Source: Escherichia coli (lineage in GTDB: Bacteria; Pseudomonadota; Gammaproteobacteria; Enterobacterales; Enterobacteriaceae). Taken from it: a stretch of DNA of 64,000 nt. The notes beneath the pieces were generated by a model. It saw only the letters and a list, made by a program, of their open reading frames with translations, had not been told where the DNA came from and did not search any database. Below, one piece after another: positions 3,295-50,286 of this stretch (its first letter is position 1; every line of letters starts with the position of its first letter). The position numbers and the translations under genes were made by a program. The stretch is from assembly GCF_009931435.1 (NCBI RefSeq), contig NZ_CP043414.1; one strand, 5' to 3'.

Positions 3295-6231
<2,937 letters not shown>

Positions 6232-6242
6232 GAGCGGCGGTT

Positions 6243-7133
6243 ATGATGTTTAAGCAATACCTGCAAGTAACGAAACCAGGCATCATCTTTGGCAACCTGA
6301 TCTCGGTGATTGGGGGATTCCTGCTGGCCTCAAAGGGCAGCATTGATTATCCCCTGTTTATCTACACGCTGGTTGGGGTGTCACTGGTTGTGGCGTCGGG
6401 TTGTGTGTTTAACAACTACATCGACAGGGATATCGACAGAAAGATGGAAAGGACGAAGAATCGGGTGCTGGTTAAGGGCCTGATCTCTCCTGCTGTCTCG
6501 CTGGTGTACGCCACCTTGCTGGGTATTGCTGGCTTTATGCTGCTGTGGTTTGGCGCGAATCCGCTGGCCTGCTGGCTGGGGGTGATGGGCTTTGTGGTTT
6601 ATGTCGGCGTCTACAGCCTGTACATGAAACGCCACTCGGTCTACGGCACGTTGATTGGTTCGCTCTCTGGCGCTGCGCCGCCGGTGATCGGCTACTGTGC
6701 GGTAACCGGCGAGTTCGATAGCGGCGCAGCGATCCTGCTGGCTATCTTCAGCCTGTGGCAGATGCCTCACTCTTATGCCATCGCAATTTTCCGCTTTAAG
6801 GATTATCAGGCGGCAAACATTCCGGTACTGCCAGTGGTGAAAGGCATTTCGGTAGCGAAAAACCACATTACGCTGTATATCATCGCCTTTGCCGTTGCCA
6901 CGCTGATGCTCTCTCTTGGCGGTTACGCTGGGTATAAATATCTGGTGGTCGCCGCGGCGGTTAGCGTCTGGTGGTTAGGTATGGCGCTGCGTGGTTATAA
7001 AGTTGCTGATGATCGAATCTGGGCACGCAAGCTGTTCGGCTTCTCGATCATCGCCATCACTGCCCTCTCGGTAATGATGTCCGTTGATTTTATGGTGCCG
7101 GACTCGCATACGCTGCTGGCTGCTGTGTGGTAA
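6243..7133 (+). CDS. cyoE: Haem O synthase (protohaem IX farnesyltransferase)
   Basis: Start moved to [19 protein letters not shown], giving 296 aa; UbiA-family membrane protein. Confidence 0.92.
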
Positions 7134-7147
7134 CACAACCTCTCTAT

Positions 7148-7176
7148 AAAAAAGGTGCTACGGCACCTTTTTTATT
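7148..7176 (+). terminator. Rho-independent terminator of the cyo operon
   Basis: aaaaaaggtgc-tacg-gcacctttttt hairpin followed by a T-run, just after the cyoE stop. Confidence 0.75.
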
Positions 7177-7187
7177 GTCTGAGAACA

Positions 7188-7219
7188 GAGATACGGCTAA
7201 TAACCGTATCTCTTGACAG
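7188..7219 (+). promoter_or_regulatory. 10-bp perfect inverted repeat abutting a TTGACA -35-like hexamer; candidate promoter/operator of the toxin-antitoxin operon
   Basis: agagatacgg-N7-ccgtatctct immediately followed by ttgaca, then a 17-nt spacer and taaatt; about 100 nt upstream of the antitoxin ATG. Confidence 0.35.
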
Positions 7220-7317
7220 AGTGAGTATATGCACATAAATTAATCATTCGGTTGATAGCCGTATTATGCATGAGATCGACTCCCTACGATTTCATTCAGT
7301 TAATCAAAGAGGTCATA

Positions 7318-7629
7318 ATGCCTGGAAAAACAGTCGCTCTACCCGATATCGATAAAACGCTGAAAAATGCGCGGGTTGAACTCAAAACCAGTCCCGACGC
7401 CAAAAACAAACTTCGTGAAGCTGCGCAAGCCGTTGGGGTAGATTTAAGCGCTTTTATTTTGAGCGCAGCTATGGAACGCGCCGAAAGTGTGCTTGATAAC
7501 CAACGTCGCCGTGAGCTTTCGAATCAAAGCTGGGAACTGATGAACCAACTCATCGCTGAACCTGCTCAACCGACGCTCGCCCTCAAGGCGTTAATGAAAA
7601 GGAAAAACAGCGATGGTCGACAAGCATGA
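7318..7629 (+). CDS. Type II antitoxin, ribbon-helix-helix DUF1778 family (TacA/AtaR-like)
   Basis: 103 aa from the ATG with RBS aaagagg; N-terminal pattern KNARVELKTSPDAKNKLREAAQAVGVDLSAFILSAAMERAESVL is typical of DUF1778 antitoxins; its stop overlaps the start of the GNAT gene. Confidence 0.75.
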   Translation: MPGKTVALPDIDKTLKNARVELKTSPDAKNKLREAAQAVGVDLSAFILSAAMERAESVLDNQRRRELSNQSWELMNQLIAEPAQPTLALKALMKRKNSDGRQA

Positions 7630-8155
7630 AGAGATTACTCTGCCCATAGTCCTCTCCTGTAATTATCAGTCTGATATTACTTATCCTGGGCAAAAACAGT
7701 TTGATTGCGGTAACCCTGTTATCGATAAATTTGTACGCGCATCGCTAAAGAAAAGTGTGCGTAATAGCGACTGTGCTGCTAAAGCACTTATTGACAGACA
7801 AAGTGGTGAACTGATTGGCATCTGTACTTTTACGGCATATTCGCTGGAAAAACAACGCGTTTCTGGCGTCCTTCAGGGTTCACAACCTTCAGAGATTGGT
7901 GTTGTCAGATTAGTCATGTTAGGGGTAGCGCGGAAATATCAAAAGCGGGGCTTTGGTCAGGACCTACTATGTGATTTTTTTGAACATGTAAAAATAATTC
8001 ACCGGGCATTACCAATTAAAGGGGTTTATCTTGATGCTGACCCTGCCGCCATTAACTTTTATACTCGTCTCGGCTTTGTTCAGCTTTCAGCGAGGCCCAA
8101 TGTTTTCGGTGCTGTACCGATGTTTTTAGCGATTCAGCATATTCTCGCGGCTTAG
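7613..8155 (+). CDS. GNAT-family acetyltransferase toxin (TacT/AtaT/ItaT-like, predicted aminoacyl-tRNA acetyltransferase)
   Basis: 180 aa; FDCG motif near the N-terminus and the acetyl-CoA motif RKYQKRGFGQDLL; 17-nt overlap with the upstream antitoxin. Confidence 0.75.
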   Translation: MVDKHEEITLPIVLSCNYQSDITYPGQKQFDCGNPVIDKFVRASLKKSVRNSDCAAKALIDRQSGELIGICTFTAYSLEKQRVSGVLQGSQPSEIGVVRLVMLGVARKYQKRGFGQDLLCDFFEHVKIIHRALPIKGVYLDADPAAINFYTRLGFVQLSARPNVFGAVPMFLAIQHILAA

Positions 8156-8210
8156 ATTATTATCGCCTCCGGCCATGGCAAGTTTTGCCTCAGCCGGGGA
8201 CTGAGCAGCG

Positions 8211-9146
8211 TTACCACTTTTGTTCAATTGCCCCCGCTTTCATCAGGTCCACATCCTTGCCTTTAATGGTTGCCGTTGCGGCAACCATTGTGGTCCTTAT
8301 TGCTGCACAAGATTTTCGTTCAAATTCCGGTTTATAAAGAATAAGCAACGAATTACTGGTAAATGAATCAAGCCGGTAATCTGTAAAGTTAATATCCAGT
8401 CGGTTTAAGCCGAAAGGTGCAAAGCCGACCGTTTGAATAGTTTCCTTACCTGACGGACTCTTGATGTTGTACGTAACACGAAGATTGGCCACTTCGCCTA
8501 ATTTATTGGTTTTGGCAAAGAGGCTATCCATGCAGGAAAAACCTTTATCTAAAAAATTATCCCGCATTCCAGAACGGGTAATCGTGATCACAGGTAACGT
8601 ATCGTCAACCGTTTTTCTGTCAATCATATCTTTTCGACAGGTGGCCATAAAGTCTTCCGGACCAGTATAAATGTGAACACCCTTATCAAGATATTCTTTC
8701 GCTTTACTACAATCCACCTCGACATACTGACCATTGGCGTACATCATGCCCAACCTGGACCATGCTAAATTCACACCGCGTTGCGTAGCCTGATTAAATA
8801 ACGCATACGCTTTGGCATAATCCACCCGCACCTGTTCACCTTCGTAGTAGATATCCCCCAGCGCTAACGGAGCTTCTTCATCACCTTGTTTAGCGGCTAA
8901 CTCGAACCATTTAATGGCTTCCTGAACGTTGGGTTTGGTATCGTAGCGGGGCTGATAATATTCCCAGCCTAACAGGCTTTGCGCGTCGACATCCCCCGAC
9001 TCAGCCATTTTATACAGTGTCCTTATCACATCGGGGGCAGGCTTTTCACTGTATATGCTGTCATACAATTCATGCGCTTTCTCGCTTGCCAGTGAACCTT
9101 GTGAGGCAATTAATAAAATAGCCAATAAACTCTTTTCATTTAACAT
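8211..9146 (-). CDS. Secreted Sel1-like repeat (TPR-like) protein with a C-terminal domain of unknown function
   Basis: 311 aa; N-terminal signal peptide (LLAILLIASQGSLAS); tandem Sel1-type repeats (AIKWFELAAKQGDEEA..LGDIYYEG...AYALFNQATQRG...LGMMYANG); roughly 170-aa C-terminal region without recognisable motifs. Confidence 0.7.
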   Translation of the reverse strand: MLNEKSLLAILLIASQGSLASEKAHELYDSIYSEKPAPDVIRTLYKMAESGDVDAQSLLGWEYYQPRYDTKPNVQEAIKWFELAAKQGDEEAPLALGDIYYEGEQVRVDYAKAYALFNQATQRGVNLAWSRLGMMYANGQYVEVDCSKAKEYLDKGVHIYTGPEDFMATCRKDMIDRKTVDDTLPVITITRSGMRDNFLDKGFSCMDSLFAKTNKLGEVANLRVTYNIKSPSGKETIQTVGFAPFGLNRLDINFTDYRLDSFTSNSLLILYKPEFERKSCAAIRTTMVAATATIKGKDVDLMKAGAIEQKW

Positions 9147-9562
9147 AAATAACCTTTATGCATCCATCACTATATTTTTCAATAAACCTAACCACCAAAC
9201 ATCCACTTCATGAATAAATACACAGCCATAACAACCTCAGGTAATAAGTAAACATTTAAGCTGAAGCAGAATAACCAGCACCTCCAACACCTCTATTTAT
9301 TGCGATAAAATAACACCATCCTTTAATAAAAAATCACACGCTCATCAACAAATCCGAAAATAATATCATTCGTGGCAGGATAAAATCAGGCGAGCTTTTC
9401 ATTTGTTATATTTAACGCACAAAGTATTAATGGCAAGAATACGAGGGAAGCGCATGCCTGACGTAAAAATCACGCTCTTATGTAATATTTACTCATTAAC
9501 ACTCTGTTTACCCAACATGCGCTCCGCACTACACTATGTGGGCAATTTTTTAAGAGGTGGTA

Positions 9563-10927
9563 ATGAACGATTATAAAATGACGCCAGGTGAGCGGCGCGC
9601 GACCTGGGGTTTAGGGACCGTATTTTCATTGCGCATGCTGGGCATGTTTATGGTACTGCCGGTTCTAACTACGTACGGTATGGCACTGCAAGGTGCCAGT
9701 GAAGCATTAATCGGTATTGCCATTGGTATTTATGGCCTGACTCAGGCCGTTTTTCAGATTCCGTTTGGCCTGCTCTCAGACCGTATTGGTCGCAAACCAT
9801 TAATTGTCGGCGGGCTGGCGGTGTTTGCTGCCGGTAGTGTTATCGCTGCGCTTTCCGACTCAATCTGGGGAATTATTCTGGGCCGGGCGTTACAAGGTTC
9901 TGGAGCGATTGCCGCTGCCGTTATGGCGCTACTTTCTGATCTCACGCGCGAACAAAACCGCACCAAAGCGATGGCGTTTATCGGCGTGAGTTTTGGCATT
10001 ACCTTCGCCATTGCGATGGTACTTGGCCCTATCATCACTCACAAACTTGGACTGCACGCGCTGTTCTGGATGATCGCTATTCTGGCAACGACCGGTATTG
10101 CGTTGACCATTTGGGTTGTGCCCAACAGCAGCACGCACGTACTTAATCGTGAGTCCGGAATGGTGAAAGGCAGTTTCAGCAAAGTGCTGGCAGAACCGCG
10201 ACTGCTGAAACTCAACTTCGGCATTATGTGTCTGCACATGCTGCTGATGTCGACGTTTGTTGCCCTGCCCGGACAGTTGGCTGATGCGGGGTTCCCGGCG
10301 GCTGAGCACTGGAAGGTCTATCTGGCGACGATGTTAATCGCCTTTGGCTCGGTTGTGCCTTTCATTATCTACGCGGAAGTTAAGCGCAAAATGAAGCAAG
10401 TCTTTGTCTTCTGCGTCGGGCTGATCGTGGTTGCGGAAATTGTGTTGTGGAACGCACAAACGCAGTTCTGGCAACTGGTGGTCGGCGTGCAGCTTTTCTT
10501 TGTGGCGTTTAATTTGATGGAAGCCCTCCTCCCCTCGCTTATCAGTAAAGAGTCGCCAGCCGGTTACAAAGGTACGGCGATGGGCGTTTACTCCACCAGC
10601 CAGTTTCTTGGCGTGGCCATTGGCGGTTCGCTGGGTGGCTGGATTGACGGCATGTTTGACGGTCAGGGCGTATTTCTCGCTGGCGCAATGCTGGCCGCTG
10701 TGTGGCTGGCTGTCGCCAGTACCATGAAAGAACCGCCGTATGTAAGCAGTTTGCGCATTGAAATCCCATCGGACATTGCCGCAAACGAGGCGTTAAAAGT
10801 GCGTTTGCTGGAAACTGCGGGTGTCAAAGAAGTGTTGATTGCAGAAGAAGAACATTCGGCTTACGTGAAAATCGACAGCAAAGTGACGAATCGCTTTGAA
10901 GTTGAACAGGCAATTCGTCAGGCATAA
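9563..10927 (+). CDS. yajR: MFS transporter YajR
   Basis: Start set at MNDYKMTPGE with RBS aagagg; about 454 aa; matches recalled YajR. Confidence 0.92.
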   Translation: MNDYKMTPGERRATWGLGTVFSLRMLGMFMVLPVLTTYGMALQGASEALIGIAIGIYGLTQAVFQIPFGLLSDRIGRKPLIVGGLAVFAAGSVIAALSDSIWGIILGRALQGSGAIAAAVMALLSDLTREQNRTKAMAFIGVSFGITFAIAMVLGPIITHKLGLHALFWMIAILATTGIALTIWVVPNSSTHVLNRESGMVKGSFSKVLAEPRLLKLNFGIMCLHMLLMSTFVALPGQLADAGFPAAEHWKVYLATMLIAFGSVVPFIIYAEVKRKMKQVFVFCVGLIVVAEIVLWNAQTQFWQLVVGVQLFFVAFNLMEALLPSLISKESPAGYKGTAMGVYSTSQFLGVAIGGSLGGWIDGMFDGQGVFLAGAMLAAVWLAVASTMKEPPYVSSLRIEIPSDIAANEALKVRLLETAGVKEVLIAEEEHSAYVKIDSKVTNRFEVEQAIRQA

Positions 10928-10943
10928 AAAACGAGGCGAATTG

Positions 10944-11029
10944 CCTGTTGCGCTACGCTTTTCAGGCCTACAAAGTTCCTGAGTGACAAATCTTTGTAGG
11001 CCAAATCAGGCGTTCATGCCGCATCTGAC
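10944..11029. repeat. REP-like palindromic units between the convergent yajR and yajQ
   Basis: gcctac...gtaggc inverted units and gatgcggcatgaacgcctga (on the minus strand) resemble the REP consensus. Confidence 0.55.
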
Positions 11030-11054
11030 ATGAACAAAGCGCAGGTTGTCGCGA

Positions 11055-11546
11055 TTAATCGCGGAAGTTTTTGAACTGGAACGGCTGACCCAGATCGCCA
11101 CCACGTACCATCGCCATGACAGCCTGCAAATCATCACGAGATTTGCCCGTCACACGGATCTCATCGCCCTGAATTTGCGCCTGCACTTTCAGTTTGCTGT
11201 CTTTGATCATCTTGACGATTTTCTTCTGGGTCGCGCTTTCAATGCCCTGTTTCAGTTTCGCTTCCACAAACCAGGTTTTACCGCTATGAACGATATTTTC
11301 CGGTACATCCAGCGAACTGCCTTCAATGCCGCGCTTCAGTAGCTTGGCACGCAGAATATCCAGCAACTGATTGACCTGGAAGTCGGACTCGCTCAACACT
11401 TTGATGGTTTTGCTGGCGTCGTTCAGCTCAAATGAGGCTTCAACGTTACGGAAGTCAAAACGGGACTCCACTTCGCGGCTCGCGTTATCGACCGCGTTTC
11501 GTGCTTCCTGAAGATCAACTTCAGAGACAATATCGAAAGATGGCAT
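11055..11546 (-). CDS. yajQ: Nucleotide-binding protein YajQ (UPF0234)
   Basis: Start moved to [11 protein letters not shown], giving 163 aa; matches recalled YajQ. Confidence 0.92.
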
Positions 11547-11713
11547 CTTTTCCTCTCCCTTCATTTTTGATGCGAAGCATAATACCTGCAAAGTTAAATA
11601 ACCGACAGTCCTGCACCAGGACGTATCCCTTAATTGTGCATAGTCGCAACAGCATGCACAATTAAGGGATAGCCTTATTGAACACCCGGAGTGGTTGCGG
11701 GTGAGGAGGAACA

Positions 11714-13178
<1,465 letters not shown>

Positions 13179-13179
13179 T

Positions 13180-13222
13180 GTCAGATGCGGCAAACGTCGC
13201 ATCTGACCAGATGCGACGTCAC
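13180..13222. terminator. Hairpin between the convergent yajL and thiI; possible bidirectional terminator
   Basis: tcagatgcg-gcaaacgtc-gcatctga stem-loop; no strong T-run. Confidence 0.4.
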
Positions 13223-13231
13223 AACCACAAA

Positions 13232-14680
13232 TTACGGACGATACACCTTCACATTGTTAAAGCCCTGCTCGCGCAGATAGAGCGCCTGCAGGCGGCTCAT
13301 CACCCCGCGCTCACACCACAACAGCCAGGTTTTGTTCTGGTCGAGATCGCCAAATTTGGTGCTCAGTTTATAGAACGGCAGAGAAACCACGTCGATACCT
13401 TCAACTCTCAGCGGCTTATCTTCTTGTTCATCAACAGAACGGATATCGAGGATCACGTCGTTCGGGCCGAAGCCGTTGACGGTTTCCACTTCCACCACTT
13501 CCTGCTCGGTCTGCTGAGCGATTTCGCGGATATCAACGTTATTCGCTTCCTCAACCACTTTATCGAGAATGCTGAAGTCGAACTTCTCTTCTTCCGCTTC
13601 AATCTTCGATTTAACCGCTTTCACCGTCGGGCTTTTGGAGATAACACCGCAGTATTCCGGCATGGTGCGGGCAAAATCTTCGGTGCCAATCTGGCGAGCC
13701 AGGTTGATGATGTGCTCTTTGTCGTAAGAGATCAGCGGACGCAGGATCAGCGTATCGGAGACGTTATCAATCAGGCGCAGGTTGGTTAGCGTCTGGCTGG
13801 ACACCTGTCCCAGCGCTTCGCCGGTGACGAGCGCCTGTACGCCGTAACGTTCAGCCACTTTAGACGCGGCACGCACCATCATACGTTTGAGAATTACGCC
13901 CATCTGACCGTCGTCGATTTTCTCGAGAATTTCACCGACGACCGGCTCAAAGTTAATGGCGACAAAACGCACGCGGTGGGAGCTACCAAAACGGTTCCAC
14001 AGATAATGCGCCACCTGACGAACACCAATTTCATGCGCCGCGCCGCCGAGATTAAAGAAGCAGTAATGCACGCGGCAGCCGCGACGCATCAACATATAAC
14101 TGGAAACACCGGAGTCGAAACCACCGGAAATAAGCGACAGCACATCTTCCTGGGTGCCGATTGGGAATCCGCCAATACCTTCGTAACGACCTTTAATCAG
14201 CAGGAGACGATCGTCTTCAACTTCCAGATGGACAGTCACATCCGGATTGGTCAGCTTCACGCGCGCGGATTCAATATGCTGATTTAAACCGCCGCCGACG
14301 TAACGTTCCACATCAATCGAGCTAAACTCATGTTTACCACGGCGCTTCACGCGTACGCAGAAGGTTTTACCTTCCAGCTGATCGCGATACTGAACCAACG
14401 CTTTCTCAAAAATATCGTGCATGTCGGTAAACGGCACGTCTTCGACTTCGAGAATATGGTGGATACCCGGAATACGGGTCAGGGCGTCGCGAATAGCCAG
14501 ACGCTGGCTTTCATCTTTTGCGCGAACTTCGATGTTATCCCAGTGGCGGACGACAGCGAGTGTCTCATCATAGTGCTTTAAAACGTTACGAATGTTCCCG
14601 GTAAGGATTTTTATAAAGCGCAAGCGCACAGATTGGCTTTTGATGGTGATTTCCGGGAACAATTTAATGATAAACTTCAT
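13232..14680 (-). CDS. thiI: tRNA 4-thiouridine synthase / thiazole sulfur carrier
   Basis: Track ORF, 482 aa; PP-loop SGGFDS and C-terminal rhodanese-like region. Confidence 0.95.
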
Positions 14681-14885
14681 GGCGGCAATGGTTCGTTGGC
14701 AAGTCTTAAGCGACTTGTATAGGGAAAAATACAGCAGCCCACACCTGCGGCTGCATCCAGGCGCGGAAGTATACCACTAACATCGCTTTGCTGCGCACAT
14801 CACCTTACCATTGCGCGTTATTTGCTATTTGCCCTGAGTCCGTTACCATGACGGGGCGAAAAATATTGAGAGTCAGACATTCATT

Positions 14886-15128
14886 ATGCCGAAGAAAAAT
14901 GAGGCGCCCGCCAGCTTTGAAAAGGCGCTGAGCGAGCTGGAACAGATTGTAACCCGTCTGGAAAGTGGCGACCTGCCGCTGGAAGAGGCGCTGAACGAGT
15001 TCGAACGTGGCGTGCAGCTGGCACGTCAGGGGCAGGCCAAATTACAACAAGCCGAACAGCGCGTACAAATTCTGCTGTCTGACAATGAAGACGCCTCTTT
15101 AACTCCTTTTACACCGGACAATGAGTAA
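14886..15128 (+). CDS. xseB: Exodeoxyribonuclease VII small subunit
   Basis: Track ORF, 80 aa; matches recalled XseB. Confidence 0.93.
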
Positions 15129-16027
15129 TGGACTTTCCGCAGCAACTCGAAGCCTGCGTTAAGCAGGCCAACCAGGCGCTGAGCCGTTTTATTGCCCCAC
15201 TGCCCTTTCAGAACACTCCCGTGGTCGAAACCATGCAGTATGGCGCATTATTAGGTGGTAAGCGCCTGCGACCGTTCCTGGTTTATGCCACCGGCCATAT
15301 GTTCGGCGTTAGCACAAACACGCTGGACGCACCCGCTGCCGCCGTGGAGTGTATCCACGCGTATTCATTAATTCATGATGATTTACCGGCAATGGATGAT
15401 GACGATCTGCGTCGCGGTTTGCCGACCTGCCATGTGAAGTTTGGCGAAGCAAACGCGATTCTCGCTGGCGACGCTTTACAAACGCTGGCGTTCTCGATTT
15501 TAAGTGATGCCGATATGCCGGAAGTGTCGGATCGCGACAGAATTTCGATGATTTCTGAACTGGCGAGCGCCAGCGGTATTGGCGGAATGTGCGGTGGTCA
15601 GGCATTAGATTTAGATGCGGAAGGCAAACACGTACCTCTGGACGCACTCGAGCGTATTCATCGCCATAAAACCGGCGCATTAATTCGCGCCGCCGTTCGT
15701 CTTGGTGCATTAAGCGCCGGAGATAAAGGACGTCGTGCTCTGCCAATTCTCGACAAGTACGCAGAGAGCATCGGCCTTGCCTTCCAGGTTCAGGATGACA
15801 TCCTGGATGTGGTGGGAGATACTGCAACGTTGGGTAAACGCCAGGGTGCCGACCAGCAACTTGGTAAAAGTACCTACCCTGCACTTCTGGGTCTTGAGCA
15901 AGCCCGGAAGAAAGCCCAGGATCTGATCGACGATGCCCGCCAGTCGCTAAAACAACTGGCTGAACAGTCACTCGATACCTCGGCACTGGAAGCGCTAGCG
16001 GACTACATCATCCAGCGTAATAAATAA
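15128..16027 (+). CDS. ispA: Farnesyl diphosphate synthase
   Basis: Track ORF, 299 aa; two aspartate-rich motifs (IHDDLPAMDDDDLRRG, FQVQDDILD); start overlaps the xseB stop. Confidence 0.95.
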   Translation: MDFPQQLEACVKQANQALSRFIAPLPFQNTPVVETMQYGALLGGKRLRPFLVYATGHMFGVSTNTLDAPAAAVECIHAYSLIHDDLPAMDDDDLRRGLPTCHVKFGEANAILAGDALQTLAFSILSDADMPEVSDRDRISMISELASASGIGGMCGGQALDLDAEGKHVPLDALERIHRHKTGALIRAAVRLGALSAGDKGRRALPILDKYAESIGLAFQVQDDILDVVGDTATLGKRQGADQQLGKSTYPALLGLEQARKKAQDLIDDARQSLKQLAEQSLDTSALEALADYIIQRNK

Positions 16028-16051
16028 ACAATAAGTATTAATAGGCCCCTG

Positions 16052-17914
16052 ATGAGTTTTGATATTGCCAAATACCCGACCCTGGCACTGGTCGACTCCA
16101 CCCAGGAGTTACGACTGTTGCCAAAAGAGAGTTTACCGAAACTCTGCGACGAACTGCGCCGCTATTTACTCGACAGCGTGAGCCGTTCCAGCGGGCACTT
16201 CGCCTCCGGGCTGGGCACGGTCGAGCTGACCGTAGCGCTGCACTACGTCTATAACACCCCGTTTGACCAATTGATTTGGGATGTGGGGCATCAGGCTTAT
16301 CCGCATAAAATTTTGACCGGACGCCGCGACAAAATAGGCACCATCCGTCAAAAAGGCGGCCTGCACCCGTTCCCGTGGCGCGGCGAAAGTGAATATGACG
16401 TGTTAAGCGTCGGGCATTCATCAACCTCTATCAGTGCCGGAATTGGTATTGCGGTTGCTGCCGAGAAAGAAGGCAAAAATCGCCGCACCGTCTGTGTTAT
16501 AGGCGATGGCGCGATTACTGCTGGCATGGCGTTTGAAGCGATGAATCACGCGGGCGACATCCGCCCGGACATGCTGGTTATTCTCAACGACAACGAAATG
16601 TCGATTTCCGAAAATGTTGGCGCGCTCAACAACCATCTGGCGCAGCTGCTTTCCGGCAAGCTTTACTCTTCACTGCGCGAGGGCGGGAAAAAAGTATTCT
16701 CCGGCGTTCCGCCCATTAAAGAGCTGCTCAAACGTACCGAAGAACATATTAAAGGCATGGTAGTACCAGGCACGCTGTTTGAAGAGCTGGGCTTTAACTA
16801 CATCGGCCCGGTTGACGGTCACGATGTGCTGGGGCTTATCACCACGCTTAAGAACATGCGCGACCTGAAAGGCCCGCAGTTCCTGCATATCATGACCAAA
16901 AAAGGTCGTGGTTACGAACCGGCAGAAAAAGATCCAATCACCTTCCACGCCGTGCCTAAATTTGACCCCTCCAGCGGTTGCCTGCCGAAAAGCAGCGGCG
17001 GCCTGCCAAGCTATTCAAAAATTTTTGGCGACTGGTTGTGCGAAACCGCAGCAAAAGACAACAAGCTGATGGCGATTACCCCGGCGATGCGCGAAGGTTC
17101 AGGCATGGTCGAGTTTTCACGTAAATTCCCGGATCGCTACTTCGACGTGGCAATCGCCGAGCAACACGCAGTGACCTTTGCTGCGGGTCTGGCGATTGGT
17201 GGCTACAAACCGATCGTGGCAATTTATTCCACTTTCCTGCAACGTGCCTATGATCAGGTGCTGCATGACGTGGCGATTCAAAAGCTCCCGGTCCTGTTCG
17301 CCATCGACCGCGCGGGCATTGTTGGTGCTGACGGTCAAACCCACCAGGGCGCTTTTGATCTCTCATACCTGCGCTGCATTCCGGAAATGGTCATTATGAC
17401 CCCGAGCGATGAAAACGAATGTCGCCAGATGCTCTATACCGGCTATCACTATAACGATGGCCCGTCAGCGGTGCGCTATCCGCGCGGCAACGCCGTTGGC
17501 GTTGAACTGACGCCACTGGAAAAACTGCCAATTGGCAAAGGCATTGTGAAGCGTCGTGGCGAGAAACTGGCGATCCTCAACTTTGGTACGCTGATGCCGG
17601 AAGCAGCGAAAGTCGCAGAATCGCTGAACGCTACGCTGGTCGATATGCGTTTTGTGAAGCCGCTTGATGAAGCGTTAATTCTGGAAATGGCCGCCAGCCA
17701 CGAGGCGCTGATCACCATTGAAGAAAACGCCATTATGGGCGGCGCAGGCAGCGGCGTGAACGAAGTGCTGATGGCCCATCGTAAACCAGTACCCGTGCTG
17801 AATATTGGCCTGCCGGACTTCTTTATTCCACAAGGAACGCAGGAAGAAATGCGCGCTGAACTCGGCCTCGATGCCGCCGGTATGGAAGCCAAAATCAAAA
17901 CCTGGCTGGCATAA
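16052..17914 (+). CDS. dxs: 1-deoxy-D-xylulose-5-phosphate synthase
   Basis: Track ORF, 620 aa; thiamine-diphosphate motif [18 protein letters not shown]. Confidence 0.96.
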
Positions 17915-46137: not shown

Positions 46138-47049
46138 ATGCTGTGGTTCAAAAATTTAATGGTTTACCGTCTTAGCCGCGAGATTTCGCTGCGTGCAGAA
46201 GAGATGGAAAAACAGCTAGCCTCGATGGCATTTACCCCATGCGGCAGCCAGGACATGGCGAAGATGGGCTGGGTTCCTCCGATGGGATCGCACAGCGATG
46301 CGTTAACGCACGTTGCCAATGGTCAAATTGTTATCTGCGCGCGCAAAGAAGAAAAAATCCTCCCGTCTCCGGTGATTAAACAGGCGCTGGAAGCAAAAAT
46401 CGCCAAGCTGGAAGCGGAACAGGCGCGCAAGCTGAAGAAAACCGAAAAAGATTCGCTGAAAGATGAAGTGCTGCACTCTCTTCTGCCGCGCGCTTTCAGC
46501 CGTTTCAGCCAAACCATGATGTGGATCGATACGGTAAACGGTTTGATTATGGTGGACTGCGCCAGTGCCAAAAAAGCAGAAGATACGCTGGCATTACTGC
46601 GTAAAAGCCTGGGGTCGTTACCGGTTGTACCATTGAGCATGGAAAACCCGATTGAACTGACGCTGACCGAATGGGTACGCTCTGGTAGTGCGGCACAAGG
46701 CTTCCAGCTGCTTGATGAAGCCGAACTGAAATCGTTGCTGGAAGATGGCGGCGTGATCCGCGCGAAGAAACAAGATTTGACCAGCGAAGAAATCACCAAC
46801 CACATTGAAGCAGGAAAAGTGGTGACTAAACTGGCGCTCGACTGGCAGCAGCGCATTCAGTTTGTGATGTGCGACGATGGTTCACTCAAGCGTCTGAAGT
46901 TCTGCGACGAGCTGCGCGATCAAAACGAAGATATCGACCGTGAAGATTTTGCCCAACGTTTTGATGCCGATTTCATCCTGATGACCGGTGAACTGGCAGC
47001 ATTAATCCAAAACCTGATCGAAGGATTAGGTGGCGAAGCACAACGTTAA
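46138..47049 (+). CDS. rdgC: Recombination-associated protein RdgC
   Basis: Start moved to [12 protein letters not shown], giving 303 aa. Confidence 0.93.
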
Positions 47050-47068
47050 TTGCTGATTTGCCTTTAAT

Positions 47069-47106
47069 GCCGGATGCGACGCCTGCGGCGTCTTATCCGG
47101 CGTACG
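47069..47106. repeat. REP element after rdgC
   Basis: gccggatgcgacgcctgcggcgtcttatccggcgtacg. Confidence 0.75.
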
Positions 47107-47126
47107 AATCCACACCAGGCATATAA

Positions 47127-47582
47127 TCATTCGCTACGGCGGGCAATAATTTTTAGCGCAGCAATATTATGCGTTTTACGCCGTAACTGATCCAACCGTC
47201 TCATCCCTATTCGCCTGTCAGCGGCACGCAGAATATTCACTAACCCCCATTTATCGCTGGTACATTGTTTCGTTAACAGCTCCGCTTTTGGGGTATCAAT
47301 ATATTCACGCAATAAATCAGAAATTGAACAAATATCCGTCAGATAAGGATACCAGCAAGTTTCACCATGAAAATTACGCACTCCACCATTGCCTGCCATA
47401 AAGTCTTTTGGGTAATCCCAGATCACGTCTTTATCCAACGTGATCCAATAACGCGGTAAATCGGAGCTTCCACCATTTTGGCTGCGCATGGGATAACGGG
47501 TACAGTGAATTTGCAGGTTGATCGTTGGCGTCAGTAAGTCATAAATCTCCCTCTGTAACTTGCTCCAGGGGCGTTGTGTCAT
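47127..47582 (-). CDS. Hypothetical 151-aa protein, second gene of the accessory operon (no signal peptide)
   Basis: Track ORF; its ATG overlaps the stop of the upstream 762-aa ORF by 4 nt (ATGA); no motif recognised with certainty. Confidence 0.6.
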   Translation of the reverse strand: MTQRPWSKLQREIYDLLTPTINLQIHCTRYPMRSQNGGSSDLPRYWITLDKDVIWDYPKDFMAGNGGVRNFHGETCWYPYLTDICSISDLLREYIDTPKAELLTKQCTSDKWGLVNILRAADRRIGMRRLDQLRRKTHNIAALKIIARRSE

Positions 47583-49867
47583 TGTTTTTCCTCAAGCCGG
47601 TTACGCGCTTCACTGCGAATTTGCCGCGTTGCCCCGGTTTTCACTAAATGACGTAACTGCGAAAGATCGGGCTGATCAACAAATAAGATTAATGATGCAT
47701 CCTCCTTTAACCACGCCGTTTTCACATCGGCAGCCAACTGTGGATTATTAATAGCCAGCGCCCGATCCTGTGACTCAGTCAATGTCGTTAACAAAGAGGC
47801 TGGGGTATGTACATTGCGCAACGCCGTCTGCCGCAAATGATCATTGTGACTTTTCAGCAATCCGCACCACCATTCATCATCTGATTTATCTTTTATCGTA
47901 TCCAGCTCCGCAAAAATATCGCTTTCCTCATGATTCCAGCGGTGTAATCCCCTTTCACTTTGTCTACGGGTGCTATTTTTCATACTGACAACAGACAACG
48001 CCCAGTCGGAGTTAAAACGATACTGTTGATCGAGTTTGTTGATAATTCCGGAGGGTAAATCTTCATTATCAAATAGCTGGTTTCGCATCCGATAGCGGTA
48101 TTCAGCAGGTAAATAAACCAGTAAATCGATGGCATTATTAAACATCTCTTCGTCAATAATACCATTATCAATCAGCGCCAGCTGTACTTCGTAGGCTTGC
48201 TCTTGATCTTCTTGCCGTTTACTCATCATTAATTTTAAGGTGTGTTGCCATAATTGTTTCTTATACTCCAGAGGTAATAATTTATCGCGTGCCAGCTCAT
48301 ACCAGATGCTGGGAATGTCATGCTGATTCAGTAGATAACTAATCACTTCCTTCGAGGTCAGATAACGCATGCCGTCACGTAAGTTGTGCACATCTTCTTT
48401 TGCCAAAGTCAGTTGACGCGACTCCGGCAAAGCGACCAATAACGCCTTCACGATATTTTTATTTTCTTTATTATCCAGATACATTTGTTCTGCGATACGT
48501 TCAACATCCTCTGTCCTCAGGGTCGCTGACAGTTGGGTGATTTTTAGTTCAGTAAGCGTCCGGGCTAATGCTTGACGAACTTTCAGCGATTTATCTTTAC
48601 TCAACAACACCGCTTGTTGTGCGGTTAAATCGGTTCCGGTAATTCTTTCGCGTAACTCCGGAGCTTCGCTATTTATCAATTCATCGACCACTGCAGTTGG
48701 AACCAGCCAGGCGTAATCGTAATGGCTGATTAATGTCTTGCGCACACTGAGAAAAGGGCTTTGACTTAACGACACAACAATATCAGGAGAAAGATTATCC
48801 TGTCTGGCCTGCTCCAGCTGTACGCTCTCGACGGGTACAGACATTAATTTTTTATTCACTTCGGCGGATATATTGCTGTTTTTAACCAGTCCTCTGGCAA
48901 CAGCTTCATCTTTAATTATTTCGTCGGTAAGCAAATGCATCTGTTGAGCGGGCCAGGACTGCGCCATCGATTCACGCGTCTGGTCATCGGGGTGCTGTAA
49001 CAGTTGCAGCATAACGGCGGTTGACAAACGCTCTATATGAGTCAGAAAACGTGCCACCAGTGGATCTTCATGCTTTATTTTATCCGCAAGGAAATTATCG
49101 AGTTTCCCCGTTTCAATCCATTTTAATTTCTCATTAATTTCAGGAGCAGCTTTATCTCGAAAAAGAGGTAAACCCTGAACGATATTGTCTACGACGCTAT
49201 CATAGTCAGGATACGCATTGGAAATATTATCGGTTTCGATTTCACTATGATCATAAAGATTAGGCGTCACCAGTGAATAAACTTTTTGAATATTCTCGTC
49301 CCAGTTATATTCTTCACCGCTTTCATCTTCATTGATATAAAACTCAGCTTTAATGACCTCAAATTGCGTTGCTTTATCGGAAACAATAATGCCTCGCGCG
49401 CTAATTCCTTTCATCACTTCAAAGTTGTGATCATTATAATCAGCATAAACCAAACCTTTCGCTGTCATCTGCCCTTTGACATACGCGAAATCATGATTAA
49501 TAAAGTTGTCGACAATAACATTACCTAATACAATCAGATGACCATTACCTGACAGATAATCATCATAATCGCCGGAAATCGTTAAATTACCGTTCACCAC
49601 CAATTTATTTTGATTGCTGAAGTTAGCGGGTAATGATAGGTCACCATTATGATAATACCAACGGATATTATCTTTCAGCATATAAGCAGCTTCCATACTA
49701 TCGTTGGTTGCCGCTTTAACCACGTTGCGCTCATCTGCCGTCATAAGATGAAAGTCAGAGGTGATAAGGTCCTCGCTACTGATCCACTCTGTGGCACATG
49801 CATTGCCAGTCATAAAAAACACGACCATACAGATGACCAATATATTAATTCTATTCATAATCTTCAC
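47579..49867 (-). CDS. Hypothetical 762-aa secreted protein (signal peptide; Gly/Asn-rich N-terminal region; helical-repeat C-terminal region)
   Basis: Track ORF; N-terminus MKIMNRINILVICMVVFFMTGNACA is a Sec-type signal; no catalytic motif recognised. Confidence 0.65.
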   Translation of the reverse strand: MKIMNRINILVICMVVFFMTGNACATEWISSEDLITSDFHLMTADERNVVKAATNDSMEAAYMLKDNIRWYYHNGDLSLPANFSNQNKLVVNGNLTISGDYDDYLSGNGHLIVLGNVIVDNFINHDFAYVKGQMTAKGLVYADYNDHNFEVMKGISARGIIVSDKATQFEVIKAEFYINEDESGEEYNWDENIQKVYSLVTPNLYDHSEIETDNISNAYPDYDSVVDNIVQGLPLFRDKAAPEINEKLKWIETGKLDNFLADKIKHEDPLVARFLTHIERLSTAVMLQLLQHPDDQTRESMAQSWPAQQMHLLTDEIIKDEAVARGLVKNSNISAEVNKKLMSVPVESVQLEQARQDNLSPDIVVSLSQSPFLSVRKTLISHYDYAWLVPTAVVDELINSEAPELRERITGTDLTAQQAVLLSKDKSLKVRQALARTLTELKITQLSATLRTEDVERIAEQMYLDNKENKNIVKALLVALPESRQLTLAKEDVHNLRDGMRYLTSKEVISYLLNQHDIPSIWYELARDKLLPLEYKKQLWQHTLKLMMSKRQEDQEQAYEVQLALIDNGIIDEEMFNNAIDLLVYLPAEYRYRMRNQLFDNEDLPSGIINKLDQQYRFNSDWALSVVSMKNSTRRQSERGLHRWNHEESDIFAELDTIKDKSDDEWWCGLLKSHNDHLRQTALRNVHTPASLLTTLTESQDRALAINNPQLAADVKTAWLKEDASLILFVDQPDLSQLRHLVKTGATRQIRSEARNRLEEKQ

Positions 49868-49965
49868 TGATATTTATATCAACCTTGATGAATTATGAAT
49901 ATATCGGAAATCGAAAAAATCGCAGCAAAGGAAATATTATTATGGGTTAAAGAGAAGATATTTCA

Positions 49966-49995
49966 GAAAAATGCCCTCCCGTTCATGGGGAAGGC
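49966..49995 (-). terminator. Probable terminator of ppnP
   Basis: Minus-strand hairpin (gccttcccc-atgaac-gggagggc) followed by attttt. Confidence 0.5.
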
Positions 49996-50001
49996 GAGGA
50001 A

Positions 50002-50286
50002 TTACAGATAGCGGCACAGATAAGAGGTGGGTTCGGCAACTTGCAGATGAAACTCGCTGTGACCGGGAACATTAAACACCGAACCGGCTTCATACACTTG
50101 CCAGTCGGTCGCGTCAGGCAGTAACACATTCAGCGCACCACTGATTACCGTCATCTCTTCAGGCTCAGCGGTGCTGAAGGTGTATTCGCCTTCAACCATA
50201 ACACCCACGCTGGCGCGACCAGTGCTGCTGCTGGAAAAGCCGATCGATTTCACTTTGCCGGAAAAGTACTCATTACTTTGAAGCAT
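50002..50286 (-). CDS. ppnP: Pyrimidine/purine nucleoside phosphorylase PpnP (YaiE)
   Basis: Track ORF, 94 aa. Confidence 0.92.

Follow-up and report, generated by a model that had tools for sequence, protein, structure and literature searches.

We analysed 64,000 nucleotides of Escherichia coli DNA (contig NZ_CP043414.1; this whole stretch is hereafter the window), in which the minus strand of the rdgC–ppnP interval carries two overlapping genes, a large one for a predicted exported protein and a small one for a protein of the SF0329 family. Based on alignment with K-12, this locus is the intact form of ykiA-ykiD, and the ykiA and ykiD of K-12 are deletion remnants of it. The core of the locus is laid out as follows (pI, isoelectric point).

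47579..49858, minus strand: large gene, full-length ykiA, 759 amino acids from the ATG at 49858 (MNRINILV...), from the open reading frame and the RefSeq coding sequence of near-identical strains
47127..47582, minus strand: small gene, full-length ykiD, SF0329 family, 151 amino acids, predicted cytoplasmic, pI 9.4
47579..47582, minus strand: ATGA stop/start overlap, read from the sequence, joining the TGA of the large gene and the ATG of the small gene

A preliminary description of this DNA had listed two minus-strand reading frames of 762 and 151 amino acids with an ATGA overlap between rdgC and ppnP, and the open reading frame (ORF) listing bears this out. The larger figure results when the first GTG (49867) is taken as the start (ORF 47579..49867), which adds three in-frame codons; the ATG at 49858 is the better-placed start for the large gene and the RefSeq start in near-identical strains. 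RefSeq labels the products "DUF2773 domain-containing protein" (large) and "SF0329 family protein" (small). A GAGGA lies nine bases 5' of the small-gene ATG, and the overlap itself is best read as translational coupling of the two genes; it is retained in O157 and replaced by a 2-nt gap in a lineage whose large protein is 71% identical. The G+C content, earlier counted by hand at roughly 40%, is 42.5% at the locus compared with 50.8% for the window and 50.8% for rdgC, in agreement with the earlier impression of an AT-rich region. Both ORFs are, on their substitution patterns, real genes under purifying selection: against the O157:H7 alleles the ratio of nonsynonymous to synonymous substitution rates (dN/dS) is 0.18 for the large gene and 0.075 for the small gene, at a dS of ~0.2. 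Judged by layout and distribution, the locus is an accessory, AT-rich, co-transcribed bicistron of the Escherichia lineage at a fixed ppnP-rdgC site.

Of the complete E. coli genomes surveyed (5426), 443 carry the whole locus, mainly those of O157:H7, O55:H7 and O145 types. For the large gene, the 5' 1.9 kb is present in 446 (~8%), and the small-gene core is present in 920; the small gene stands alone in ~474 genomes, and copies of the large gene that lack the small one are all but absent. K-12-type sequence is related to the window by two deletions.

47921..49859, no strand assigned: deletion 1, codons 1-646 of the large gene, absent from ~92% of complete E. coli genomes
47189..47552, no strand assigned: deletion 2, K-12-type and in frame, with loss of SF0329 residues 12-135 and a GTAACT microhomology at the junction

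What K-12-type genomes keep of the large gene is its C-terminal 113 amino acids (the ykiA pseudogene), aligned to window positions 47553-47920, and K-12 YkiD (27 amino acids, MTQRPWSKLQRKTHNIAALKIIARRSE) corresponds to small-protein residues 1-11 joined in frame to residues 136-151. The YkiD sequence has been described, and YkiD is expressed as a small protein in K-12 (PMC6001520). The preliminary description had placed only a short ykiA at this site in K-12 and had suggested that the window might hold the intact form of a locus degraded there. Both points proved correct through these deletions, the K-12 site holding the 113-residue ykiA fragment and the 27-residue YkiD; the proposed check, an alignment against the K-12 rdgC-ppnP interval, returned remnants and no intact copies.

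Deletion 1 is old, because its junction is common to K-12-type, CH458-type and Escherichia sp. MOD1-EC7003 sequences. In E. albertii the large gene has been lost by another, independent deletion, and a divergent lineage holds both genes at the same site, with protein identities of 71% (large) and 84% (small). The same synteny at this level of divergence, together with the dN/dS values, argues for a real, long-lived pair in Escherichia. In E. coli, the genome counts and deletions point to stepwise loss that is under way, with the large gene going first.

Allelic differences were also seen at the end of the small gene. SF0329 ends in ...AALKIIARRSE in the window (151 amino acids) and in ...AALKNYCPP in O157:H7 (L002, 1735-2184; 149 amino acids), so that the last SF0329 helix is altered or truncated in the O157 lineage; the YkiD C-terminus (L003, 1728-1811) agrees with the window allele (KIIARRSE), not with that of O157. 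The window itself probably comes from a divergent Escherichia coli lineage. Positions 46900-50100 and their flanks are ~94-96% identical to K-12 and O157, flanking core genes included, rdgC has a dS of 0.18 against O157, and the region is 99.7% identical to the goat isolate R32_14_1F.

The large protein divides into the following predicted parts.

49793..49858, minus strand: predicted Sec signal peptide, codons 1-22 (MNRINILVICMVVFFMTGNACA), cleavage before TEW, from the n/h/c layout and the A-x-A rule
49331..49666, minus strand: right-handed bactofilin-like beta-helix, residues ~65-176, the module best conserved within the family
47582..49141, minus strand: alpha-solenoid of LRV/HEAT-like helical repeats, residues ~240-759
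47582..47824, minus strand: DUF2773 (PF10971), residues 679-759, E=5.6e-37 over the full model length, the segment surviving in K-12 ykiA

The clear Sec signal peptide of the preliminary description holds up as a prediction: by inspection the N-terminus, MNRINILVICMVVFFMTGNACA followed by TEW, fits the n/h/c layout and the A-x-A rule, and most full-length homologues likewise have a hydrophobic N-terminus with A-x-A just ahead of a conserved [E/D]W. An AlphaFold model built from a 40-sequence alignment reached a predicted local distance difference test score (pLDDT) of 90.7, with low values over the signal peptide, as expected for such a segment. In this model, the region earlier noted as Gly/Asn-rich forms the beta-helix and the helical-looking C-terminal repeats form the alpha-solenoid, the two being separated by a short linker that is helical and bears the conserved motif G-x-P-x-F-R. 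Pfam returned DUF2773 only, and NCBIfam, PADLOC, PHROGs and PDB sequence searches added nothing. The repeats of the large protein are too divergent for Pfam (HEAT at an i-E-value of 9.9 only), and its homologues match Pfam LRV/LRV_2. An exhaustive HMMER search recovered 167 representatives of the large family, ~36 of them with the full architecture of 750-800 amino acids.

In a fold test the beta-helix classed as bactofilin-type, with generic beta-helix proteins (tapirins, autotransporter passengers) matching as well as bactofilins or better. Bactofilins are cytoplasmic polymers, and the large protein differs from BacA and TtBac in having a signal peptide and a 500-residue solenoid after the helix, and in giving no match to Pfam Bactofilin (PF04519) even at E<=10. 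From LRV/PBS-HEAT-like solenoid proteins (1lrv, alphaRep scaffolds) it differs by its beta-helix, its export signal and the divergence of its repeats. The matches to hexapeptide-repeat acyltransferases all have a root-mean-square deviation above 11 Å. The preliminary description had recognised no catalytic motif, and family and structure searches likewise found no enzyme domain. From the model we infer an exported protein whose architecture suits binding or scaffolding and includes neither an enzyme nor a toxin domain. Outside this architecture, the beta-helix module (P0204, P0229, P0205, P0248 and others) is found again in proteins of 200-1200 amino acids that have no signal peptide and in which it is fused to LRV, LRR, TPR, DUF285 or GNAT regions; lacking a Pfam family, this module of the YdbD family (below) appears to be an unnamed, widespread domain.

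By full-length BLASTP alignment (27% identity over 740 amino acids, E=4e-82), the large protein and E. coli YdbD (b1407; "DUF2773 domain-containing bactofilin" in RefSeq) are paralogues. Both proteins have a hydrophobic signal-like N-terminus, a beta-helix, an extended region of helical repeats and a DUF2773 segment at the C-terminus, and envelope-stress regulators are associated with both genes, sigmaE with ydbD and BglJ-RcsB with ykiA. The ydbD gene was induced 3.9-fold on sigmaE overproduction, in a study that describes it only as "induced by methylglyoxal" (PMC2731931), and it scored as fitness-relevant despite a level of about six copies per cell (bioRxiv 038851). However, ydbD is monocistronic and kept in most E. 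coli (found in 3834-4476 of the 5426 genomes; solitary and adjoining pdxI), whereas the large gene of the window is coupled to a downstream SF0329 gene and occurs in ~8% of complete genomes. Apparent plasmid-borne copies of the large gene were discarded, the tblastn matches being E. coli chromosomes labelled as plasmids, which led to ydbD; the PLSDB records concerned (NZ_CP141089.1, NZ_OL790696.1 and NZ_CP134663.1; L094 in our locus set) are 4.8-4.9 Mb in length and evidently E. coli chromosomes with ydbD-pdxI.

The small protein was assigned to SF0329 by NCBIfam NF049912 (91.2 bits against a cut-off of 60) and Pfam PF25753 (E=5.4e-22). As anticipated in the preliminary description, it is predicted to be cytoplasmic, with no signal peptide found. 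Its pI is 9.4, and its C-terminal 42 residues (110-151), which are helical, have a pI of 11.9. Searches of Pfam, NCBIfam, PADLOC and PHROGs with the small protein returned SF0329 only, and a PDB sequence search gave no solved-structure relative; among the locus proteins, PADLOC (anti-phage defence) had no match and PHROG matches were confined to E>0.1. More than 550 SF0329 homologues were recovered, 55-65% identical across phyla that include Proteobacteria, Firmicutes, Bacteroidota, Spirochaetes, Campylobacterota, Deferribacteres and Acidobacteria, and 24 residues are invariant in a 44-sequence alignment, many of them polar and aromatic. Neither protein fell into a well-characterised housekeeping family, an outcome that the preliminary description had allowed for; DUF2773 and SF0329 are both catalogued but uncharacterised.

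For the large protein, seven homologue contexts were readable, located by exact-protein look-up. The homologue is monocistronic in all seven, the surroundings are mutually unrelated, and an SF0329 gene occurs in none (0/7). In L089 (5217-5915), a homologue with 35% identity is encoded immediately downstream of a gene for a Sel1-repeat protein, in the same orientation.

The context of SF0329 was read at 80 loci drawn from a 100,044-species genome set, at least 76 of them outside Escherichia. Traces of the large gene beside SF0329 were found in Escherichia only, and none of the non-Escherichia loci in this set encodes a large-protein homologue. The gene directly upstream differs nearly everywhere (GltX, an aminotransferase, McrBC, L17 and a resolvase are examples) and is often a housekeeping gene, and this heterogeneity speaks against a conserved partner or toxin beside SF0329. 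Large neighbours include PurL, ABC transporters and a TPR protein, and in another enterobacterium SF0329 sits alone beside xseA-guaB. An apparent SF0329 'fusion' of 367 amino acids (L019) was an artefact, the ORF having been extended through antisense sequence. The solitary contexts of the large family (7/7), the heterogeneous upstream neighbours of SF0329 and the unequal counts of the two genes in E. coli (920 vs 446 genomes) support independent genes, which would not be cognate.

Recognised immunity families are co-directional with SF0329 in a subset of loci, the rest being single insertions. Eighteen loci were array-like, and their 138 neighbours include SUKH_6/SMI1_KNR4, SUKH-3, Imm51, Imm43, DUF2314, DUF4240, DUF1963 and DUF6985; arrays with SF0329 occur in Bacteroidales, Clostridia, Deferribacteres and others. 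In Paenibacillus (L007), SF0329 overlaps a gene of DUF2314, which is Imm34 (PMC3482391), and SUKH-3 is close by. Heterogeneous arrays of immunity genes have been described as polyimmunity loci (Zhang et al. 2012, PMC3482391), and rAID-1 arrays are recognised by a XerD-like recombinase of the tyrosine family in 5' position, at least two co-directional genes, a G+C content of 41% or less and at least 44% identity to the B. fragilis recombinase (bioRxiv 10.1101/471110). On one Bacteroidales contig (L097), a tyrosine recombinase (Phage_integrase) is followed by 19 co-directional small genes with 34.3% G+C, Imm10 and SF0329 among them; the presence of a tyrosine recombinase, the gene number and the G+C agree with the layout of rAID-1 and polyimmunity loci, and the array may be called rAID-1-like by layout. 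The genes of this array (5726-16751) also include Macro and DUF7716, and most are unclassified, many having no Pfam match.

SF0329 homologues thus resemble the orphan immunity genes of polyimmunity and rAID-1 loci in lying in long, tight, co-directional, AT-rich arrays of unrelated small genes, in the company of SUKH, Imm10, Imm34, Imm43 and Imm51, in one case behind a tyrosine recombinase, and in the patchy, horizontally spread and strain-variable distribution of the family. They differ from them in that SF0329 is not a published Imm family, no cognate toxin was found and conservation across phyla is far above that usual for immunity proteins; the Escherichia locus differs further in having two genes and no recombinase, with an upstream neighbour that is not of an immunity family.

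Two other settings of SF0329 were observed. In Leminorella grimontii (L005 and L010; ~5238-9331 in L005), the tol-pal cluster and a DAHP (3-deoxy-D-arabinoheptulosonate 7-phosphate) synthase gene enclose a small island of genes for HTH_35, two uncharacterised proteins, WGR+DUF4240, an uncharacterised protein of 109 amino acids, SF0329 and an uncharacterised protein of 285 amino acids; the island resembles an accessory array of unrelated small genes. In ~27 loci from uncultured Campylobacter metagenome-assembled genomes (within L034-L082), SF0329 lies in conserved synteny, unlike its variable context elsewhere, with uncharacterised genes for 227 and 177 amino acids upstream, and a class-I S-adenosylmethionine-dependent methyltransferase-like gene (~270 amino acids) and an uncharacterised gene for 370 amino acids downstream.

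Along the minus strand of the window locus, aroM and ppnP are followed by a hairpin terminator and a promoter-like site, then by the large and the small gene, and these by a palindrome resembling repetitive extragenic palindromic (REP) elements and the convergent rdgC.

49859..50001, minus strand: ppnP-ykiA intergenic region, containing, by sequence scan, the ppnP terminator hairpin (49973-49995) and the promoter-like site (49966-49939)
47069..47101, no strand assigned: REP-like imperfect palindrome in the gap between the small gene and convergent rdgC, an inverted repeat with 15-nt arms, 87% complementary (GCCGGATGCGACGCC / GGCGTCTTATCCGGC)

Window positions 49860-50100 are 96.7% identical to K-12-type sequence, and the ppnP-ykiA region is the counterpart of the K-12 fragment with the ykiA promoter, which BglJ-RcsB activates, as documented by promoter-lacZ fusions, 5' rapid amplification of cDNA ends (5'-RACE) and site mutagenesis (PMC3950696). 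No secretion-system genes were found near the locus, whose neighbours are ppnP and rdgC, and the locus holds no recombinase and no recognised Imm family.

We favour, with a probability of about 0.5, a reading in which an exported YdbD-like envelope scaffold or binder and an orphan SF0329 immunity protein, not cognate to one another, came together in an ancestor of Escherichia and are now eroding. The large protein, exported through Sec, would have a non-catalytic binding or scaffolding role in the periplasm or envelope, and SF0329 would bind and neutralise a cytoplasm-acting toxin delivered by competitors. Elsewhere, SF0329 behaves as a free-standing cassette that moves horizontally; in the Escherichia ancestor it would have come to lie beside the large gene, ykiA-ykiD would be expressed through the BglJ-RcsB-activated promoter under envelope-related signals, and stepwise loss, beginning with the large gene, would have followed. 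The immunity idea of the preliminary description is kept in part: by its context the small protein may be of immunity type, but as an orphan and not as the partner of its upstream neighbour.

Several points weigh against this reading. The immunity assignment of SF0329 proceeds by guilt by association; many SF0329 loci are single insertions by housekeeping genes and not arrays, and in the 18 tightly linked cases no toxin gene lies directly upstream and no adjacent toxin was found. Cross-phylum identity of 55-65% is unusually high for an immunity protein and would equally suit an enzyme or a nucleic-acid binder, and the pI of 11.9 at the SF0329 C-terminus is to be noted beside the latter option. 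The tight coupling long retained in Escherichia, and the near absence of the large gene without the small one, could also reflect functional dependence. For the large protein, export is a prediction from sequence rules. Silencing of ykiA by H-NS, considered for the AT-richness of the locus, is not claimed, PMC3950696 being without an H-NS test of ykiA.

An unlikely alternative is that the two genes form a toxin-less 'mini polyimmunity' operon acting in two compartments, in which the exported YdbD-like repeat protein would bind toxins, countering effectors in the periplasm, SF0329 would counter those in the cytoplasm, and RcsB would switch on both genes upon envelope attack. In one form of this reading, SF0329 would be a hitherto unnoticed immunity family of uncommon conservation, or an enzyme that reverses toxin action, directed at a widespread cytoplasmic toxin. 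HEAT, ankyrin and LRR repeat proteins are among listed immunity proteins, and toxin-less immunity operons of two to three genes have been described (PMC3482391). The presence of SF0329 in polyimmunity-type arrays, the strain-variable locus and the RcsB-dependent promoter would all agree with such an operon. However, in its seven contexts the large family was never in an immunity array or beside a toxin, ydbD occupies a fixed chromosomal site in most E. coli, and neither a recombinase nor a recognised Imm family accompanies the two genes at the window locus.

It is also possible, if rather doubtful, that the genes constitute a functionally linked envelope module, in which the YdbD-like protein would need SF0329 in Escherichia, either as a factor that binds nucleic acid or regulates or as a cytoplasmic helper in assembly or export. 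The basic C-terminal helices (residues 110-151, pI 11.9), the very strong conservation of SF0329 with its many invariant polar and aromatic residues, and the long-retained translational coupling all speak for this possibility.

The preliminary description had itself suggested a toxin-immunity or effector-chaperone pair as a fit. In such a pair the large secreted protein would harm other cells or its producer, and the small protein would protect or chaperone. This proposal is not supported, and we consider it improbable; the genes are probably not a cognate pair. One trait of toxin-immunity loci is present, in that the ATGA overlap places a small gene immediately downstream of a large one; the small gene is also alone in ~474 genomes, as an orphaned immunity gene might be, the large gene being almost never alone, and both genes are retained in the 71%-identical lineage. 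However, the pair is unlikely to be cognate because the large protein has no toxin or trafficking domain, the products are predicted to have separate destinations, in the contexts read the genes do not co-occur outside Escherichia, the paralogue ydbD and seven homologues stand without a partner, and the small protein is basic. In the large protein, searches gave no toxin or enzyme domain (DUF2773 as the only Pfam family, no PDB sequence match, a beta-helix and LRV solenoid fold), and no trafficking or secretion module (RHS, LXG, two-partner secretion (TPS), PAAR, or type V and type VI secretion system (T5SS/T6SS) markers), the sole export feature being a Sec-type signal. SF0329 in turn occurs without the large gene in at least 76 non-Escherichia loci. 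Secretion chaperones are typically small and acidic, unlike SF0329 with its pI of 9.4.

That both genes are functionless relics, neutral leftovers of an old horizontal acquisition kept intact by chance, would agree with their deletion in most E. coli, with a separate deletion in E. albertii and with the AT-rich locus, but is highly improbable given dN/dS values of 0.18 and 0.075 at a dS of ~0.2, full-length ORFs at 71%/84% protein identity in a divergent lineage and the very strong conservation of the SF0329 family.

Current understanding is not overturned by these results, as both families were already catalogued and the functional proposals are inferred; the remnant relation in K-12 is already implicit in RefSeq pseudogene notes. 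Compared with the searchable literature, the explicit paralogy of ykiA and ydbD with a structural description, the recognition of YkiD as an in-frame SF0329 remnant and the repeated presence of SF0329 in arrays of polyimmunity and rAID-like type appear to be new. For E. coli, the ykiA pseudogene and the 27-residue YkiD expressed in K-12, both odd features of that strain, are accounted for as deletion leftovers of a real operon, ykiA is tied as a paralogue to the uncharacterised gene ydbD, and an unsupported toxin-immunity annotation is removed from a locus present in O157:H7. If the two-compartment mini polyimmunity operon were true, it would offer a first way into the function of E. coli YdbD. 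More broadly, SF0329 offers a testable lead as an orphan immunity-type cassette shared by gut Bacteroidales, Clostridia and Enterobacteriaceae.

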